A stretch of DNA of 42,211 nucleotides from Chlamydiales bacterium (GTDB lineage Bacteria; Chlamydiota; Chlamydiia; Chlamydiales; JBFIDQ01). The position numbers and the translations under genes were made by a program. Positions 709 through 40,134 of this stretch are shown here, piece after piece (position 1 is the stretch's first letter; each line of letters starts with the position of its first letter). The notes below the pieces were generated by a model. It saw only the letters and a list, made by a program, of their open reading frames with translations, was not told where the DNA came from and did not search any database. The stretch lies in contig JBFIDQ010000001.1 of the NCBI GenBank assembly GCA_041603795.1, positions 1 through 42,211 on the forward strand, given 5' to 3'.

Positions 709-1125
709 TCAAGCACTATCAATGTCGTAATTAAGACTCATTCTATGCGCAACCGCATCAAGGAGATTATCGAACCAACCATAATGCTTATCTTGTACTC
801 GAACTTGCCACCTTCCAGATTTTTTACTGTAACTTACCCCCACAACGCCAGATTTATTGTCTTTACGCAGCCCTCTATTTATTGTGTTAAGACCTCTTGT
901 GGCGAATCTTAAATTGGATTTTCTATTGTCTTTTTTATCCCTATTAATGTGATCGATCTCAGTACCTTCAGCGGCGCCCATAATTAACCTGTGCATGAGA
1001 ATTCCCCGCCCTGTCGGCTCTTTGTGTTTTTTCCTAGCTTTTGTTCTAAGATACCCCTCGCTAGTCTCATGCCACGTATATGAACCAACAAGTTCCTCAT
1101 CCTCTTTATCGACTAAATACTTCAC
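709..1125 (-). CDS. HNH homing endonuclease with AP2-type DNA-binding domain
   Basis: HNH core is EIDHINRDKKDNRKSNL. The AP2-like segment is SGVVGVSYSKKSGRWQVRVQDKHYGWFD. The start overlaps the RNR stop by 4 nt. Confidence 0.8.
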   Translation of the reverse strand: MKYLVDKEDEELVGSYTWHETSEGYLRTKARKKHKEPTGRGILMHRLIMGAAEGTEIDHINRDKKDNRKSNLRFATRGLNTINRGLRKDNKSGVVGVSYSKKSGRWQVRVQDKHYGWFDNLLDAVAHRMSLNYDIDSA

Positions 1126-3731
1126 GAGCTGCAGGCCCCTCCTTTACCGGCTATCGAGCAAATTTCGTGCTCTGCGTATTCTACGCCTTGATGCTTTACA
1201 GCTTCTTCGTAGGGAATCTCTGTTATAGGTTGACCGCCCCTGCTGCCATCCGGATAGGCCGTAAACCCCCTAATTTTAGGCGCGTACTTGCCAAGTATTG
1301 CAGCAAATTCTTTAACCCTTCCTTCGTTGTTGCTTTTGCTGCCCCATTCGGCAAGATTGATAGTGCTGGAGATAGCCATATCCACATACTCTTGCACCTC
1401 TGCCTGGAACTTGATCCGCTTCTCAAAGTCCTCGGACAGGGTAACGGACGTTTCGATTTCATCTGGTTTAATCCCTAGTTCTTCTACCAAGTATCTGGCA
1501 GTAGCATCCACAACAAACTGATACTTCCACTTTGTTCCGTCAACAAGATAGCGACGTTTGTATGCTTTATAGATGACAGGCTCTATTCCCGATGTTGTTT
1601 GCGCGAGGATAGATATTGATCCTGTTGGCGCAATTGCTCGATAAGCGATGGGTCGCGAGCATCCCACCCAGTCAGCCAAGTCATTAGCACCTCTCTCTGA
1701 GCCGGATTCATAGACCTCCAGCCACTTTTTGAGTTCGGGTGTAACCGTGTAGTCACTTCCTCGTTTGAGCAGCCATTCGTGGATACCCATAAGTCCAAGC
1801 CCAAGCCGACGGTTCTTTGCCCGGACGTCATACACTTTCTGGTAAGGCAAATCTGCTCTAAGGGTTCCGCAGATGAGGAACTTACTGGCGAGGTTGACAA
1901 CCGTTTCAAATTCTTCCAGGTCATCAATAGCACTGAGGTTAACAGACGCAAGGTTGCATACATCAGAGTCATCCTCTGATGTAACCTCTGTACAGTTTGA
2001 AACGATAACCCCTTCAGCCATAAAAGCATGTTCTTCTACCCCAACATCGCAACAAAAAACATCAGAAAATCCATAATCCTGAACGCTAATGACCTTAACG
2101 GCTGCTTTTCTGTACGGTATGCAGTGCCTGATCTTTAGTCTTGCAGTTGGAATAATTTCTGAGAATCTGTTTACGAATTCAGTGTAAACCGTCAAGGTGT
2201 ATCCTTGAAGGTTTCCATAAGAAGATATGCCAGACGTAGAAATTCCAGAAAGAATCCCTACCTGCTCCAGCAGTCTGCGCACCCCACACAAGAAGTCATA
2301 ATTCTTATTTGATAATCTAACCCTGTTTTGCTCCTTAAAATAGTTTCCGTCAGCGTCGAACAGCCCAGCAAGGAATGACACTTGTTGTGCAGTACCAGAT
2401 AAATATAAATCATCAGGAAATAAGACTTTACTTCTGTTTGATAACAACTTATCGTTGATAGTATATACTCTAGTATAGCCCCTTGAATCATTTGCTGTAA
2501 CAGAAGAAAGCATTGACTTATCAAAATTGTTCAAGCATTGCTTACTTTCTTGCGTGCAAAATGTAACTTCGGCGCGAGGATATTTTTTACTAAAACTTCC
2601 ATCACCATATATGTACCCAAGAGTGTAATAATCCTCTGTCAAAAATGAATCAATTTCCTCACACAATGATATTTTTAGTGAGTCTCCAGTGACAAGATCC
2701 TTCGCGGAGACTTTTTCATCGCTAGAAAGAAAGAATTCGTGCTCTGGATCCGCTACTATCTCCCTTCCACCCGACATCAGCACTCGAAGGACTGGAACGT
2801 GCTCCCCAGTGCGTTTAAATACAGTCTTGGCCCACTGCTTTCCAGTCCATACCTTAACGGTTTCGCCAACAATATCCTTTATTTGTCTGTAGCCGTCAAG
2901 AGTAAAAACATACGTCTCTGGCCCAAGAGGGGCGTTACGAAGCGTTTCATTCTGCTTGTCACCAAAGTTAAAAGAGAATCCAGGCTCCCCGGTCATCATA
3001 GCCTGCTTGCAGTTCTCCATGAAGATCTCATCTGTGTGCGGAGACATCATGTCACGCCACGCATCATCATAGTTCACAGATATATTAGTATGATCTAATG
3101 GAGCAGGGAAGTTAAAGTCTGTCTGCTTAACATCCCATAGGTTAAGACCACTGTCTCCTACCGGGTGATCCTTCCAGTTTTTTATTCTGAGGAAGTCCCG
3201 AATATCTCCGTGCTGCCAGTTAAGTGATGCGTAAATTGCGCTTCTGCGAGACCCGCCCTGCATAACGTTTCGGCCAATTTCATTGACTGAACACATGAGA
3301 GGGAGCGGCCCGGAGCTAAGTCCACCAGTTCTGGACAGAGTGACACCGCCTTCTCGTAGGATGGAATAGTCAGTTCCAATTCCACCGCCAGACATGAGAC
3401 AATCGGAAGATACTCTGGCAATCCTTCCCCATTCTTCACGGGTATCCTCTTCCGCTTTAAGTAGGTAACAATTGTTCCAATAATGTGCGTCCCGTCCTGC
3501 GTAGTAGAGATATCTTCCACCTGGAATAAACTTTCTCTGATAAATAAGCTCAACGATTTCGTCTCTGTCCCCTTGGGACATGAGCGGATCGCTACGCCCG
3601 TTAAATGTTCCGCATACGTCGTCGACCAGTCGGTTGGCAAGGTTCCACCATGTATCATTGTTCCCTTGGGCGTACTTGTTGTAGAAGATGGACTCCGCGA
3701 ACTCGTTTCGGAAGTTGTTTTTTCTTGACAT
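1122..3731 (-). CDS. nrdJ: class II (adenosylcobalamin-type) ribonucleotide reductase, interrupted by an intein
   Basis: The N-terminal region reads FIPGGRYLYYAGR...CLMSGGGIGTDYS...GGSRRSAIYASL. After removing residues 268-579 the active site reads LRNA-CTEV, matching the N-x-C-x-E motif, followed by VCNLASVNL. An AGGAGA-like RBS (GGAGAAATGAAAGA) precedes the ATG. Confidence 0.9.
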   Translation of the reverse strand: MSRKNNFRNEFAESIFYNKYAQGNNDTWWNLANRLVDDVCGTFNGRSDPLMSQGDRDEIVELIYQRKFIPGGRYLYYAGRDAHYWNNCYLLKAEEDTREEWGRIARVSSDCLMSGGGIGTDYSILREGGVTLSRTGGLSSGPLPLMCSVNEIGRNVMQGGSRRSAIYASLNWQHGDIRDFLRIKNWKDHPVGDSGLNLWDVKQTDFNFPAPLDHTNISVNYDDAWRDMMSPHTDEIFMENCKQAMMTGEPGFSFNFGDKQNETLRNAPLGPETYVFTLDGYRQIKDIVGETVKVWTGKQWAKTVFKRTGEHVPVLRVLMSGGREIVADPEHEFFLSSDEKVSAKDLVTGDSLKISLCEEIDSFLTEDYYTLGYIYGDGSFSKKYPRAEVTFCTQESKQCLNNFDKSMLSSVTANDSRGYTRVYTINDKLLSNRSKVLFPDDLYLSGTAQQVSFLAGLFDADGNYFKEQNRVRLSNKNYDFLCGVRRLLEQVGILSGISTSGISSYGNLQGYTLTVYTEFVNRFSEIIPTARLKIRHCIPYRKAAVKVISVQDYGFSDVFCCDVGVEEHAFMAEGVIVSNCTEVTSEDDSDVCNLASVNLSAIDDLEEFETVVNLASKFLICGTLRADLPYQKVYDVRAKNRRLGLGLMGIHEWLLKRGSDYTVTPELKKWLEVYESGSERGANDLADWVGCSRPIAYRAIAPTGSISILAQTTSGIEPVIYKAYKRRYLVDGTKWKYQFVVDATARYLVEELGIKPDEIETSVTLSEDFEKRIKFQAEVQEYVDMAISSTINLAEWGSKSNNEGRVKEFAAILGKYAPKIRGFTAYPDGSRGGQPITEIPYEEAVKHQGVEYAEHEICSIAGKGGACSS
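1995..2930 (-). mobile_element. intein (312 aa) with LAGLIDADG homing-endonuclease domain, inserted immediately before the catalytic Cys of NrdJ
   Basis: Block A-like PLGPETYVFTLDG. Two LAGLIDADG motifs, LGYIYGDGS and LAGLFDADGN. Block F/G reads DVFCCDVGVEEHAFMAEGVIVSN followed by Cys+1. Boundaries come from restoring the extein N-x-C-x-E motif. Confidence 0.85.
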
Positions 3732-5860: not shown

Positions 5861-6301
5861 TCAAGACCTAATAGCTATTATTTTCTTAAGGAATTCAAGT
5901 CTTGCTAGGCACTCAGACACATTGGCATCCCCTGAGTAATTATTAAAGAAGTATTCGACTGCTCTGTTGTAAGAAGGCCACCACTGGCAGCCAGCTTGGT
6001 AGATCCAGTCATCGCCATCCTGCCAAGCAAAAAACTGGAATGAACGGCCGTCACTACCACCGTCTACAAGGATAGTTGATGTTATATCAGCCCTGTAAAG
6101 ATGAGCGCCCCTAAAATCTGCAAAATCAAGACGGGCCTTATGCAAATTTGTCCGGGTCATGTACGCATCATGAAATGTAGCGCCCTCAAGATTCGCCTTG
6201 TAAAACGATACATCTGTAAGAATACATCCAGAAAAGTCTGCTAAGGCCAACGAAGCGGACGAGAAATCAACGCCAGCAAGGTCTTGCCCTGAATAGTTCA
6301 T
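5861..6301 (-). CDS. pentapeptide-repeat protein with non-repeat C-terminal domain
   Basis: Contiguous A(D/N)LXX-type pentapeptides are visible (DLAGVDFSSASLALADFSGCILTDVSFYKANLEGATFHDAYMTRTNLHKARLDFADFRGAHLYRADIT). The ATG at 6301 is preceded by GGAGG. It is the first gene downstream of the leftward promoter. Confidence 0.8.
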   Translation of the reverse strand: MNYSGQDLAGVDFSSASLALADFSGCILTDVSFYKANLEGATFHDAYMTRTNLHKARLDFADFRGAHLYRADITSTILVDGGSDGRSFQFFAWQDGDDWIYQAGCQWWPSYNRAVEYFFNNYSGDANVSECLARLEFLKKIIAIRS

Positions 6302-6321
6302 AATACCTCCATTGCCAAACA

Positions 6322-6350
6322 AGTATAACACAACATGTACCATTTGTCAA
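6322..6350 (-). promoter_or_regulatory. sigma70-type promoter (leftward early operon)
   Basis: The minus strand reads TTGACA, a 17-nt spacer, then TATACT, with TGT immediately upstream of the -10. It lies 20 nt upstream of the pentapeptide-repeat gene ATG. Confidence 0.7.
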
Positions 6351-20742: not shown

Positions 20743-21155
20743 GTATTTTTTTTGATGACAATTCTGGATCTCCGTCAGATACTACTGACGGAATTCCAGT
20801 AAAGCTAAAAGACTCATTAGCCAATGAAAGAAATCCCGGGACGGCAAACGAGTATGGTGTGTCTGTTCCTGAGTGGAACTATACTGTAATAGATCACGCA
20901 GACACATCGCCTGTAGCAGTATCTGGCGGCGTTCCGGCAATAATAGGTAATGTTTACTGCTCTGAAGCAATGGCCGGAAGCCCTGATTTTGCATTCTACG
21001 ATGATTCTACAGAGGTTTATCCGATGCCGGTATCTATGACTTTATCTTCGGAAAAGCTGTCCCTTGCCGGTACAATTTTTGCCACTGACCTTAACTGCGT
21101 CATAGCGTCTGCTGGAACTGCGGGGAAGATAGTTGTTCAATGGCGAGTTAAGTAA
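20739..21155 (+). CDS. hypothetical protein
   Basis: The ATG at 20739 forms an ATGA overlap with the upstream stop. The track start is TTG at 20712. Confidence 0.6.
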   Translation: MSIFFDDNSGSPSDTTDGIPVKLKDSLANERNPGTANEYGVSVPEWNYTVIDHADTSPVAVSGGVPAIIGNVYCSEAMAGSPDFAFYDDSTEVYPMPVSMTLSSEKLSLAGTIFATDLNCVIASAGTAGKIVVQWRVK

Positions 21156-22603
21156 TGACGACAAGATATTCTGTAAATAAACAAAGGAATTCAAGTTATC
21201 TTGACATTGAATCGGCCTTTACAAATGCTGCGTTTTTAGGCGGCGGTAGATTTAATAGCTCGTTATTAACTTTGGATGGCGTTGGGGCAGATAGCACAAC
21301 CACGGGTACGTGGGTAAGCCTGGGTGTGTCGGAAGATCATTCAGGACTGCTGACCGAAGGGTCTTTAATGATGTGGCTAAACAGTGACTATGTAGCTGGA
21401 GGTCTCGATTCCAGCGGATCTGTGATTGCGGCAGTAAATGCCGCTTCGCTCCCGGCTTCAATAATGAATAGAGACGGCTCTGATGCAAATAGAGGAACTA
21501 TAGTTGTAGACCCGAATGGGTATATTGACAGCCAATTAGTTATACCTTCAACTGATGATGAATATTTGCATTATAATTTAAATATTGCTTGGCGAGGCAA
21601 GGGTTCGTGGATTCCAATAATTCATCAATGGAGTTCTTCGGGTAGATTCCAGACAATTGTTGATGGCCTTGTTGTTGCGGATTCGCAAATAGGAACCTAC
21701 GATTTTCATTCGTTGGACATGAATCCTTACGACGTAAGAGACCCTAACGCTTCCACTGATTCGGACGCGTTAAGAAATGTTGCTTTGCTTGATTCTTTTC
21801 AGGATATTGGATCACCGAAAATAAGAATTGGTTTTATAGGTGATTCGTTAATGAACTTTGGCGGATTCCCAGACTGGATGTGGAGCAGCAGAACAACTCA
21901 ACGCCCTGACTGGATACCTATTGAAAATTCTTTCGCTACTGCTGGCCCAAAAGGAATAGACGGCTCAAATGGTGCGGCAGCCGAGTCAGTAAACGGAAAG
22001 CATTATGATGCCGGTGCATTAACTACAATTATAAGAATGGCTCACAAATCAGGATACTTGTCTTCTAAAAACCTGAACTTCACACAGGGTGGAGCAACGA
22101 CAGCACAAATAAAGACAAATCTTAACAACCTATTGTCTATTGGTGTGCCAAATGTTGTTTTTTGCAATGCCGGACAGAACGATGCAAATGACGGTGCTAG
22201 CTTTGACGCATCAGCAAAAACAACCTTCGAATCAAATTTAAAGAGCATGGTATCTACAGCATACAATTCAAAAGTAAATCAGTTTATAACAAGCACGCTG
22301 CACTCAATGCAGAACAACACAACTTATTCAGATCAAGTGTACGCCGACAACGTTGATTACTGCAATGCGGTTATAAACAGTCTACCTCGCTGGTCTAAAA
22401 GACAAGGGTATGGCGATAAGTTTTTAAGGGTTGCTGACAATTTTACAGCTTTCGGCGGGCATTCGTTCGACTCTAATTTGTTCTTAACAAATGATGTTCA
22501 TCATTCAACTGCTGGAAGTTATCTTTTTGGATATGAAATGGGGAAAATGATAAGCGATATAGTCCTTGGTAAAAGGTTTATGGTAGGCGCAAGATCTAGT
22601 TAA
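21155..22603 (+). CDS. two-domain protein with C-terminal SGNH/GDSL hydrolase (putative polysaccharide esterase)
   Basis: Block I is IGFIGDSL. Block III is FCNAGQNDAND. Block V is TNDVHHS. The roughly 220-aa N-terminal region has no recognised motif. Confidence 0.7.
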   Translation: MTTRYSVNKQRNSSYLDIESAFTNAAFLGGGRFNSSLLTLDGVGADSTTTGTWVSLGVSEDHSGLLTEGSLMMWLNSDYVAGGLDSSGSVIAAVNAASLPASIMNRDGSDANRGTIVVDPNGYIDSQLVIPSTDDEYLHYNLNIAWRGKGSWIPIIHQWSSSGRFQTIVDGLVVADSQIGTYDFHSLDMNPYDVRDPNASTDSDALRNVALLDSFQDIGSPKIRIGFIGDSLMNFGGFPDWMWSSRTTQRPDWIPIENSFATAGPKGIDGSNGAAAESVNGKHYDAGALTTIIRMAHKSGYLSSKNLNFTQGGATTAQIKTNLNNLLSIGVPNVVFCNAGQNDANDGASFDASAKTTFESNLKSMVSTAYNSKVNQFITSTLHSMQNNTTYSDQVYADNVDYCNAVINSLPRWSKRQGYGDKFLRVADNFTAFGGHSFDSNLFLTNDVHHSTAGSYLFGYEMGKMISDIVLGKRFMVGARSS

Positions 22604-39657: not shown

Positions 39658-40134
39658 CTAAATGGAAAGCACAATATCATCAAGGTTCGGCGGTGAGTAA
39701 TCCGGGCCTTTCATGATTTTGCCATCCTGGTTCTTCAGAGCCTTTCCGTCCTTAGGGATCTTGCTGTCGTTAGACCGGCACACCTCCTTGACTACATCGT
39801 CTAAAGGAATACCATAGGCCACGGCAGTACCAGCAATGACATACATCATGTCAGCAAGGGCGTCTGCAATATCTACGATGTCTTCCTCTGCTTCAGCATC
39901 AAGGTACTCATGGAATTCTTCACGCAGTAACATGATGCGTAGTTCCTGTTCTTCTATTGTTGGTATCTCGGCATTGAAACCACCAATCTTTAATCCGGTA
40001 GCCCGGTGCCAGTTGCGGACAGAATTCATTAAACCTTCAATCATTTCGATCTCCAAAAAACCCCAAGCAACAATTGCCATTATAAATACCGCCATGATGT
40101 TGGCGAATATAATTGGAATATCTTCAACGCTCAT
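39658..40134 (-). CDS. MazG-like nucleoside triphosphate pyrophosphohydrolase with hydrophobic N-terminal extension
   Basis: The core EEQELRIMLLREEFHEYLDAEAEEDIVDIADALADMMYVIAGTAVAYGIPLD...SNDSKIP..DGKIMKGPDY matches the EExxE...D-x-x-D MazG/PRA-PH-type pattern. Two SD-preceded in-frame starts lie at 40134 and 40044. Confidence 0.75.
   Translation of the reverse strand: MSVEDIPIIFANIMAVFIMAIVAWGFLEIEMIEGLMNSVRNWHRATGLKIGGFNAEIPTIEEQELRIMLLREEFHEYLDAEAEEDIVDIADALADMMYVIAGTAVAYGIPLDDVVKEVCRSNDSKIPKDGKALKNQDGKIMKGPDYSPPNLDDIVLSI

Follow-up and report, generated by a model that had tools for sequence, protein, structure and literature searches.

This analysis identified an intein that probably splices without an N-terminal nucleophile and is sited at the active site of a phage ribonucleotide reductase (RNR). 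The window, i.e. the whole stretch of DNA that was analysed, comprises positions 1 to 42,211 of contig JBFIDQ010000001.1, from an assembly assigned to a Chlamydiales bacterium (GCA_041603795.1). The longest open reading frame (ORF) at its left end encodes an RNR large subunit of 869 amino acids, and the intein interrupts this protein exactly before the residue that aligns with the thiyl-radical cysteine. Its first residue is a proline (Pro1), and a cysteine, Cys293, is found at position 4 of block F (F:4), where class 3 inteins have their branch nucleophile. Judging from comparisons with relatives and with inteins of known mechanism, we consider it probable that this is a functional mobile intein which splices by the class 3 route.

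Junction at the active-site cysteine

Excision of residues 268-579 joins ...NETLRNA to CTEVTSEDDSDVCNL, and the spliced sequence aligns with T. maritima NrdJ without a gap across N320-P-C322-G-E324. Given this gap-free alignment at C322, the residue that follows the intein (+1) is assigned as the thiyl-radical cysteine. With the spliced extein as query, the best 120 proteins were taken; they comprised the window's own protein, one other intein-bearing protein (P0168) and 118 proteins without an intein. All 118 have an alanine between the motif asparagine and the cysteine (N-A-C), and the string LRNACTEVT is exact in 106 of them. These intein-free alleles identify the proline as residue 1 of the intein, and no alignment places a Cys, Ser or Thr at the junction. 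An earlier interpretation of this DNA, made from its letters alone and referred to here as the sequence-only reading, had proposed that removal of these residues restores LRNA-CTEV, that the intein begins with Pro and lacks an N-terminal nucleophile, and that the +1 residue is the catalytic cysteine. All three proposals were borne out by the alleles, by the alignment with T. maritima NrdJ and by the relatives described below. That reading had also raised the possibility of a truer N-terminal junction with Cys, Ser or Thr, which the same alleles exclude. Because the intein interrupts the gene exactly at the catalytic cysteine, RNR activity would depend on splicing.

The closest intein-free allele is 87% identical to the extein in a global alignment. 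P0168 also has an extein that is 87% identical, together with an intein at the same site that is 88% identical. Presence or absence of the intein thus varies among near-identical host alleles, which is what a mobile intein should show. The guanine-plus-cytosine (GC) content is 40.7% in the intein and 48% in the exteins, and 37% versus about 50% at third codon positions, which is consistent with horizontal acquisition.

Related inteins were also found at neighbouring positions. In two proteins, the intein lies one residue downstream (...STNAC/C...GN/SE..., the slash marking a junction), after the catalytic cysteine and with Ser at +1. This pair shows an apparent drift of homing-site choice around the active site. 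Four other proteins carry an intein at the catalytic site and a second, canonical intein (VYD..., VHN/CNL) at the cysteine of the motif DVCNL, which is the next conserved one.

Splicing motifs and the Pro1 family

The block A assignment of the sequence-only reading, in which PLGPETYV matches the consensus at Leu2, Thr6 and Val8, agrees with the family, in which T6 and V8 never vary and V, L or I occupies position 2. The core of block B reads ADPEHEFF. With regard to block F, a profile search against solved structures places the cysteine of the family sequence 'edVYCcdVkveEHsF' on the F:4 aspartate of Pho CDC21 ('swVYDLQVPEHhNF') and on the engineered F:4 cysteine of gp41-1_WCT ('ELICIEV'). When the class 3 prototype, from mycobacteriophage Bethlehem, is aligned over its block F ('VPVKCIGIDTEDHLF'), Cys293 falls on Cys320 with equal Cys-to-His spacing; the profile alignment also places Pro1 on Pro1, His64 on His65 and Phe66 on Trp67. 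All three alignments support the earlier placement of this cysteine at the class 3 branch position. The Trp-Cys-Thr (WCT) triplet of class 3 inteins corresponds here to F-C-V, the penultimate residue is Ser and the +1 residue is Cys, so that the proposed Phe for Trp, Val for Thr and Ser for His all proved correct.

The intein also matches Pfam LAGLIDADG_3 (E 9e-16), and the acidic catalytic positions of both motifs (GDG and ADG) align with I-DmoI. Both motifs therefore appear intact, as had been proposed, and the insert has the features expected of a two-motif LAGLIDADG homing endonuclease domain. The match to Pfam Intein_splicing is below threshold (27.6 vs 35.8 bits). The AlphaFold2 model built with the family alignment has a predicted local distance difference test (pLDDT) score of 95.6 and a predicted template modelling (pTM) score of 0.93, and its top Foldseek matches are the TliVMA, PI-PfuI and PI-SceI inteins. 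As Foldseek on the full model recovers mainly endonuclease-bearing class 1 inteins, the predicted fold appears uninformative on mechanism. The family profile matches solved inteins with E-values down to 1e-7. Taken together, the predicted HINT fold, His B:10, Asn G:7 and a residue of the Cys/Ser/Thr type at +1 are what would be expected of an intein.

A word-indexed protein search with the intein returned three fragments only, and an exhaustive search was needed to recover the family. A phmmer search of 1.84 billion cluster representatives yielded 1556 matches, of which the best 150 were analysed. In these 150, 123 inteins could be delimited; 105 of them occupy the N-x/C-x-E site, 28 starting with Pro (complete inteins with the junction RNA/P) and 77 with Cys (Cys1). 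Viral contigs of IMG/VR contributed 42 further loci, representing 36 distinct DNA sequences, with RNA/P in all. Pro1 is therefore present in at least 65 sequences, i.e. in 29 of 29 representatives (the window intein included) and in 36 of 36 distinct IMG/VR sequences.

Across the set of 29, identity to the window intein is 37-65%. The invariant columns are Arg-3, Asn-2 and Ala-1 in the N-extein, Pro1, Thr6, Val8, His B:10, Val F:2, Cys F:4, Val F:7 and Asn G:7 in the intein, and Cys+1 and Glu+3 after it. In the WTG motif, the Thr-Gly pair is invariant and the Trp nearly so. Position B:12 is Phe in 28 sequences and Val in one. Cys F:4 is invariant, whereas F:5 is either Cys or Ala. The codons for Pro1 in the 36 distinct viral sequences are CCT (14), CCA (11), CCG (10) and CCC (1), and both cysteine codons occur at F:4.

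Mini-inteins of 127-167 amino acids, which have lost the endonuclease and kept all splicing motifs, make up nine of the representatives and eight of the viral loci. Splicing is therefore selected independently of homing. Ratios of non-synonymous to synonymous substitution rates (dN/dS, Nei-Gojobori) were calculated against the nearest relative, L052; since dS is saturated, the values of 0.07 for the N-extein, 0.064 for the C-extein, 0.048 for the whole intein and 0.036 for the endonuclease domain are approximate. Despite this saturation, strong constraint on both the intein and the exteins is clear.

With regard to distribution, a megablast of the gene against GenBank phages gave no match, and tblastn gave only relatives of less than 31% identity, one of which was examined (phage PH357) and starts with Cys1. 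No member of the Pro1 family was found in the 185,579 GTDB species genomes scanned, and it is so far metagenomic. One 183-residue fragment (P0070) carries an intein of this family behind a different N-extein (...KRKHLGTP/PLSAST... instead of ...LRNA/P), with the active-site asparagine missing; it may represent a decayed RNR or a different host context.

Probable class 3 splicing and its rivals

By the class 3 route, the thiol of Cys293, helped by His64 (B:10), would attack the Ala267-Pro268 bond, possibly with further help from two acidic residues specific to the clade, Asp61 (B:7) and Asp295 (F:6). The N-extein would thereby become a thioester on Cys293, i.e. a block F branched intermediate. 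Trans-thioesterification would then move it to Cys580 (+1), giving a block G branched intermediate, after which Asn312 would cyclise and release the intein. Finally, an S-to-N acyl shift would form the Ala-Cys bond and rebuild the N-A-C-T-E active site. This order of chemical steps and the roles of the individual residues are what we infer. The Thr at G:5 of canonical class 3 inteins is the third member of a Cys-His-Thr triad (PMC7664689). As the G:5 residue is aliphatic here, we infer that Asp or Glu at B:7, or Asp at F:6, would replace this threonine in the triad.

Several observations favour this route. Position 1 holds no Cys, Ser or Thr, and F:4 is a cysteine that sits exactly at the position of a proven nucleophile and is invariant while F:5 varies. 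The neighbouring Cys294 was considered as an alternative nucleophile and is unlikely, its position being Ala in 7 of 29 representatives. Pro1 and Cys+1 both have precedents, and there is evidence that at least one proven class 3 intein can do without the Trp, the Thr and the penultimate His. The Bethlehem prototype starts with Pro1, splices efficiently and absolutely requires its block F Cys320 (PMC2807308). The Bvi IcmO intein of Burkholderia vietnamiensis is an exception to the usual Ser or Thr at +1, as it has Cys+1; this cysteine cannot stand in for Cys F:4, and the class 3 order of branching holds even with a thiol at +1 (PMC5222942). AceL NrdHF, in which the triplet is M-C-T and both C-terminal His residues are missing, uses class 3 chemistry (PMC7891396).

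In the original definition, class 3 inteins have the WCT triplet and no N-terminal nucleophile (PMC5222942). The operational definition of Hoffmann et al., which asks for Cys at C2:4 but none at the N-end, covers 1701 inteins in nr; B:12 deviates in 6.1% of the catalogued class 3 inteins, and the triplet F-C-V accounts for seven of 1702 entries (2.49% weighted), given in Table S1 without comment (PMC7891396). The description of the window intein as class-3-like with a non-canonical triplet therefore stands, with the qualification that this triplet had already been tabulated as a rare class 3 variant. Likewise, the sequence-only reading made Pro1 look more exotic than it is, given that the class 3 prototype shares it.

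Other observations weigh against a class 3 assignment. Two members of the triplet differ, with Phe66 for Trp at B:12 and Val310 for Thr at G:5, and the prototype needs its tryptophan for N-terminal activation, the W67F variant splicing well only at 15 C (PMC2807308). The +1 residue is Cys instead of the typical Ser or Thr, although it is fixed here by the active site of the host. Cys F:4 is also found in 75 of the 77 same-site Cys1 relatives, so its conservation alone is no proof of a role as nucleophile. Ser at G:6 combined with Cys+1 is a hallmark of class 2 (PMC4031507). Finally, the family is remote from canonical class 3 inteins, with 13.8 bits against the prototype and an E-value of 0.02 against Msm DnaBi1.

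These points lead to the only rival to which we give appreciable weight, namely class-2-type splicing, in which Cys580 would attack the Ala-Pro amide directly and yield the branched intermediate of block G in one step, with Cys293 in a supporting role in place of the usual Asp F:4. Ser G:6 and Cys+1 are universal in the class 2 KlbA inteins (PMC4031507), the original rule assigns inteins with neither an N-terminal nucleophile nor a WCT triplet to class 2 (PMC2807308), and a cysteine that is equally conserved in Cys1 relatives may serve some purpose other than nucleophilic attack. Nevertheless, Ser G:6 and Cys+1 are the only features in common. Every known class 2 member is an ortholog of KlbA and has Ala1, Thr B:7 and Asp F:4 (PMC4031507), where the window intein has Pro1, Asp and Cys; the KlbA structure (2JMZ) matches the family profile with an E-value of only 0.45; and a thiol occupies the exact position of the class 3 nucleophile. 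We therefore regard class-2-type splicing as unlikely.

A degenerate intein that no longer splices, leaving the phage with a dead RNR gene, might be suspected from the loss of both the canonical N-terminal nucleophile and the penultimate His and from the sub-threshold Pfam splicing match. It is, however, very unlikely: none of His B:10, Cys F:4, the block F His, Asn G:7 or Cys+1 has been lost, Pro1 is invariant over at least 65 diverged sequences, and these motifs also persist in the mini-inteins. The gene has an uninterrupted reading frame, dN/dS is close to 0.05 for the intein and to 0.07 for the exteins, and the model is of high confidence (pLDDT 95.6). The sequence-only reading had named degeneration as an outcome that would overturn it, and family conservation, the mini-inteins and dN/dS exclude this. 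A misplaced junction or a sequencing error is still less credible. A single transition would turn Ser TCT into Pro CCT, but an identical 869-residue protein was assembled independently from SRA run SRR29257391, L052 encodes Pro1 as CCG and all four proline codons occur in the family. The intein-free alleles fix the junction to the residue, and the Pro1 column aligns exactly with Cys1 of the 77 same-site relatives. On the evidence of these alleles, the codon variety and the second assembly, this explanation was rejected. A dead intein and a wrong junction together take up only a very small share of the probability.

Comparison with characterised inteins places these features in context. The Bethlehem 'DnaB' intein (MP-Be DnaB) shares with the window intein Pro1, His B:10, Cys F:4, the Cys-to-His spacing, a C-terminal Asn, a LAGLIDADG endonuclease and a phage host. 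It differs in having Trp B:12, Thr G:5, His G:6 and Thr+1 where the window intein has Phe, Val, Ser and Cys, and it lies in an ATPase P-loop instead of at an RNR radical cysteine; the overall similarity is marginal. Bvi IcmO resembles the window intein in lacking an N-terminal nucleophile and in having Cys F:4 and Cys+1, but it is a mini-intein with a full WCT triplet in another host protein (PMC5222942). The AceL NrdHF split intein, a proven class 3 intein, has in common a deviant triplet, the absence of a penultimate His, a phage-like origin (a metagenomic contig) and an RNR-related gene (PMC7891396), whereas Ala1, Thr G:5, the lack of a block F His, natural splitting, Ser+1 and its location in the beta subunit (NrdHF) set it apart. 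The class 2 KlbA inteins of Methanococcus jannaschii share the lack of an N-terminal nucleophile, Ser G:6 and Cys+1, and differ in Ala1, Thr B:7 and Asp F:4 and in being confined to archaeal KlbA orthologs. By sequence, the closest solved full-length structure is PI-PfuI (P. furiosus RIR1-1, PDB 1DQ3; E 7e-15 with the family profile), which is also the second-ranked Foldseek match and, like the window intein, an RNR intein with a LAGLIDADG endonuclease. Unlike the favoured class 3 reading of the window intein, PI-PfuI is class 1, with Cys1, Asp F:4 and a C-terminal His-Asn.

The location of the prototype in its own phage was also clarified. It sits in gp11, a protein of 903 amino acids (AY500153, 7260-9971) encoded directly upstream of the portal gene, and judging by this position we take gp11 to be terminase-like. 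The annotated DnaB-like helicase gp62 (273 amino acids) was considered as the host and rejected, as there is no intein in it.

Same-site Cys1 relatives and the origin of the clade

Neighbour-joining of the splicing domains separates the Pro1 group as one well-supported split (190 of 200 bootstraps), and mean identity is 46% within this group versus 27% between it and the Cys1 group. Profile comparison leaves no doubt that the two groups are homologous, hhalign aligning them over their full length with a probability of 99.9% (E 5e-34). The Pro1 profile scores 70-86 bits with Cys1 RNR inteins, as opposed to 13.8 bits with the Bethlehem prototype. Against solved structures, both profiles retrieve class 1 inteins first (Pho CDC21, gp41-1, PolB16, NrdJ-1, DnaE); the class 3 Msm DnaBi1, weakly matched by the Pro1 profile, was not matched by the Cys1 profile. 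The Cys1 inteins, exemplified by that of PH357, share with the window intein the N-x/C-x-E site, Cys F:4, Cys+1 and a LAGLIDADG endonuclease, but occur mostly in class Ia RNRs.

Within the Cys1 group, 51 of 77 inteins have Thr at G:5 and 11 have Trp at B:12. Several positions covary perfectly with position 1 when the Pro1 clade (29) is compared with the Cys1 group (77). B:7 is Asp, Glu or Ser in the Pro1 clade and Thr in all 77 Cys1 inteins; F:6 is Asp or Asn as opposed to mostly Thr; 28 of the 29 Pro1 inteins have the block F His, which the Cys1 group lacks. In block G, G:5 is Ile (19) or Val (10) versus mostly Thr, G:6 is Ser versus mostly Gly, and G:7 is Asn versus Gln or Asn.

P0150, from the same extein subfamily, carries a Cys1 intein at the same RNA/C junction, which means that two lineages of inteins share this homing site. 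The RNR alpha intein of PH357 (KX822733; SNL/CVAPET..., TPYHKW, DDTYCF, LTGQ/CLE) combines Cys1 with a full W-C-T triplet in an isolated phage. A metagenomic RNR with two inteins (P0102) contains, at residues 93-408, a Pro1 intein at a different RNR site (...RCNVGAYN/PVSGDTKVLT...), with a full W-C-T triplet (TDNHRW, NVYCAV, VTGN/C) and Cys+1. Given that its same-site relatives start with Cys1, the switch from Cys1 to Pro1 seemingly occurred at least twice in RNR inteins.

It is possible, although we lean against it, that splicing without an N-terminal nucleophile arose a second time, and independently, in the Pro1/Cys F:4 clade, from Cys1 inteins at the RNR site. On the same tentative footing, the Cys1 ancestors would already have had Cys F:4, and some would have combined the full W-C-T triplet with Cys1. 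The compensating changes that went with the loss of Cys1 would have been Thr to Asp or Glu at B:7, Thr to Asp or Asn at F:6, gain of the block F His, Gly to Ser at G:6 and Gln or Asn to Asn at G:7. If true, this would provide a natural series from class 1 to class 3, and it would contradict the published views that class 3 arose once and is not derivable from class 1. Reviews describe class 3 as monophyletic, with one founding event in a phage gene and a spread via helicase-type genes (PMC4031507); grafting of the WCT triplet failed to convert a class 1 intein to class 3, and a separate, protease-like origin has been argued (PMC7664689).

Pro1 together with Cys F:4 is already known and F-C-V has been counted (PMC2807308, PMC7891396). 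The lineage as such looks undescribed in the literature searched, in which we found no class-3-type intein described for NrdJ or for the catalytic cysteine of an RNR. An actinophage survey places class 3 inteins in four host proteins only, with terminase and Cas4 making up the great majority and a DNA helicase and a minor capsid protein as the others. By its sequences, the lineage appears to be marked by phage carriage, the RNR radical cysteine site, F-C-(V/I), D/E-x-x-H in block B, a Ser-Asn C-terminus and Cys+1. As the origin of class 3 is debated, the family supplies a natural clade, large and diverse, that has Pro1 and Cys F:4 and lacks the W and T; its closest relatives are same-site Cys1 inteins already bearing Cys F:4. 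This pair of groups bears on a possible latent role of Cys F:4 as nucleophile in the Cys1 forms and on which substitutions free position 1, and its interest would rise if the clade proved to derive from class 1 independently of canonical class 3. The mini-inteins accept Ala-1 and need no N-terminal Cys, and could be useful protein ligation tools. Finally, deoxyribonucleotide synthesis by the phage through this RNR would depend on thiol-based splicing and could be redox-sensitive.

The reductase gene and its phage setting

Pfam finds the RNR barrel domain in three pieces in the 869-residue protein, together with Ribonuc_red_lgC (E 2e-42). The label 'NrdJ' given by the sequence-only reading holds in part: NrdJ_Z is the best NCBIfam match to the extein, but at 188 bits it falls below the curated cut-off of 399.95. 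The best PDB match is T. maritima NrdJ (1e-25). No RNR small-subunit family was found among the scanned window ORFs of at least 150 amino acids. The coordinates of all features are given in Table 1.

Table 1. Positions in the window of the RNR gene, the elements of its intein and other genes
Feature	Position	Strand	Remarks
Intein-containing RNR large-subunit gene, class II (NrdJ)-like	1122..3731	-	869 aa precursor, 557 aa spliced
N-extein, residues 1-267, ending ...NETLRNA	2931..3731	-	Asn266 is the Asn of the N-x-C-x-E active-site motif
Intein, residues 268-579, 312 aa	1995..2930	-	HINT splicing domain with inserted LAGLIDADG homing endonuclease (predicted); boundaries from intein-free alleles
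Pro1 (CCT), first intein residue	2928..2930	-	No N-terminal nucleophile; invariant in family
Block B, GREIVADPEHEFF	2730..2768	-	Asp61 (B:7), His64 (B:10), Phe66 (B:12)
First LAGLIDADG motif, YTLGYIYGDGSF (LGYIYGDGS)	2592..2627	-	Aligned to I-DmoI
Second LAGLIDADG motif, SFLAGLFDADGNY (LAGLFDADG)	2340..2378	-	Pfam; aligned to I-DmoI and PI-PfuI
Block F, DVFCCDVGVEEHAF (DVFCCDV)	2022..2063	-	Cys294 (F:5), Asp295 (F:6), His301 (block F His)
Cys293 (F:4), proposed branch nucleophile	codon 2052-2054	-	
Block G, AEGVIVSN	1995..2018	-	Val310 (G:5), Ser311 (G:6), Asn312 (G:7, would cyclise)
Last intein codon, AAC (Asn)	1995-1997	-	
Cys580 (+1), assigned thiyl-radical Cys of N-x-C-x-E	codon 1992-1994	-	Aligns with C322 of T. 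maritima NrdJ
C-extein, residues 580-869	1125..1994	-	Aligned to T. maritima NrdJ; intein-free alleles
Free-standing HNH endonuclease gene	709-1125	-	Pfam HNH_3 E 2e-7
Pentapeptide-repeat protein	5861-6343	-	Accessory phage gene
482-aa protein with GDSL lipase/acylhydrolase domain	21155-22603	+	Accessory phage gene
MazG-like PRA-PH pyrophosphohydrolase	39658-40134	-	Accessory phage gene

The rest of the window is, by its gene content, a tailed-phage genome, encoding a large terminase, a major head protein, a head-tail adaptor, a DnaB-like helicase, a Dam methylase and a GH108 lysin, along with the three accessory genes of Table 1. The start of the HNH gene overlaps the end of the RNR gene, beginning 4 bases before the latter ends. 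With the endonuclease of the intein and the HNH gene downstream, the RNR locus therefore holds two separate selfish endonucleases. In L052, no HNH gene was called in the stretch directly downstream of the RNR gene. The RNR-HNH arrangement is also present in the independent assembly.

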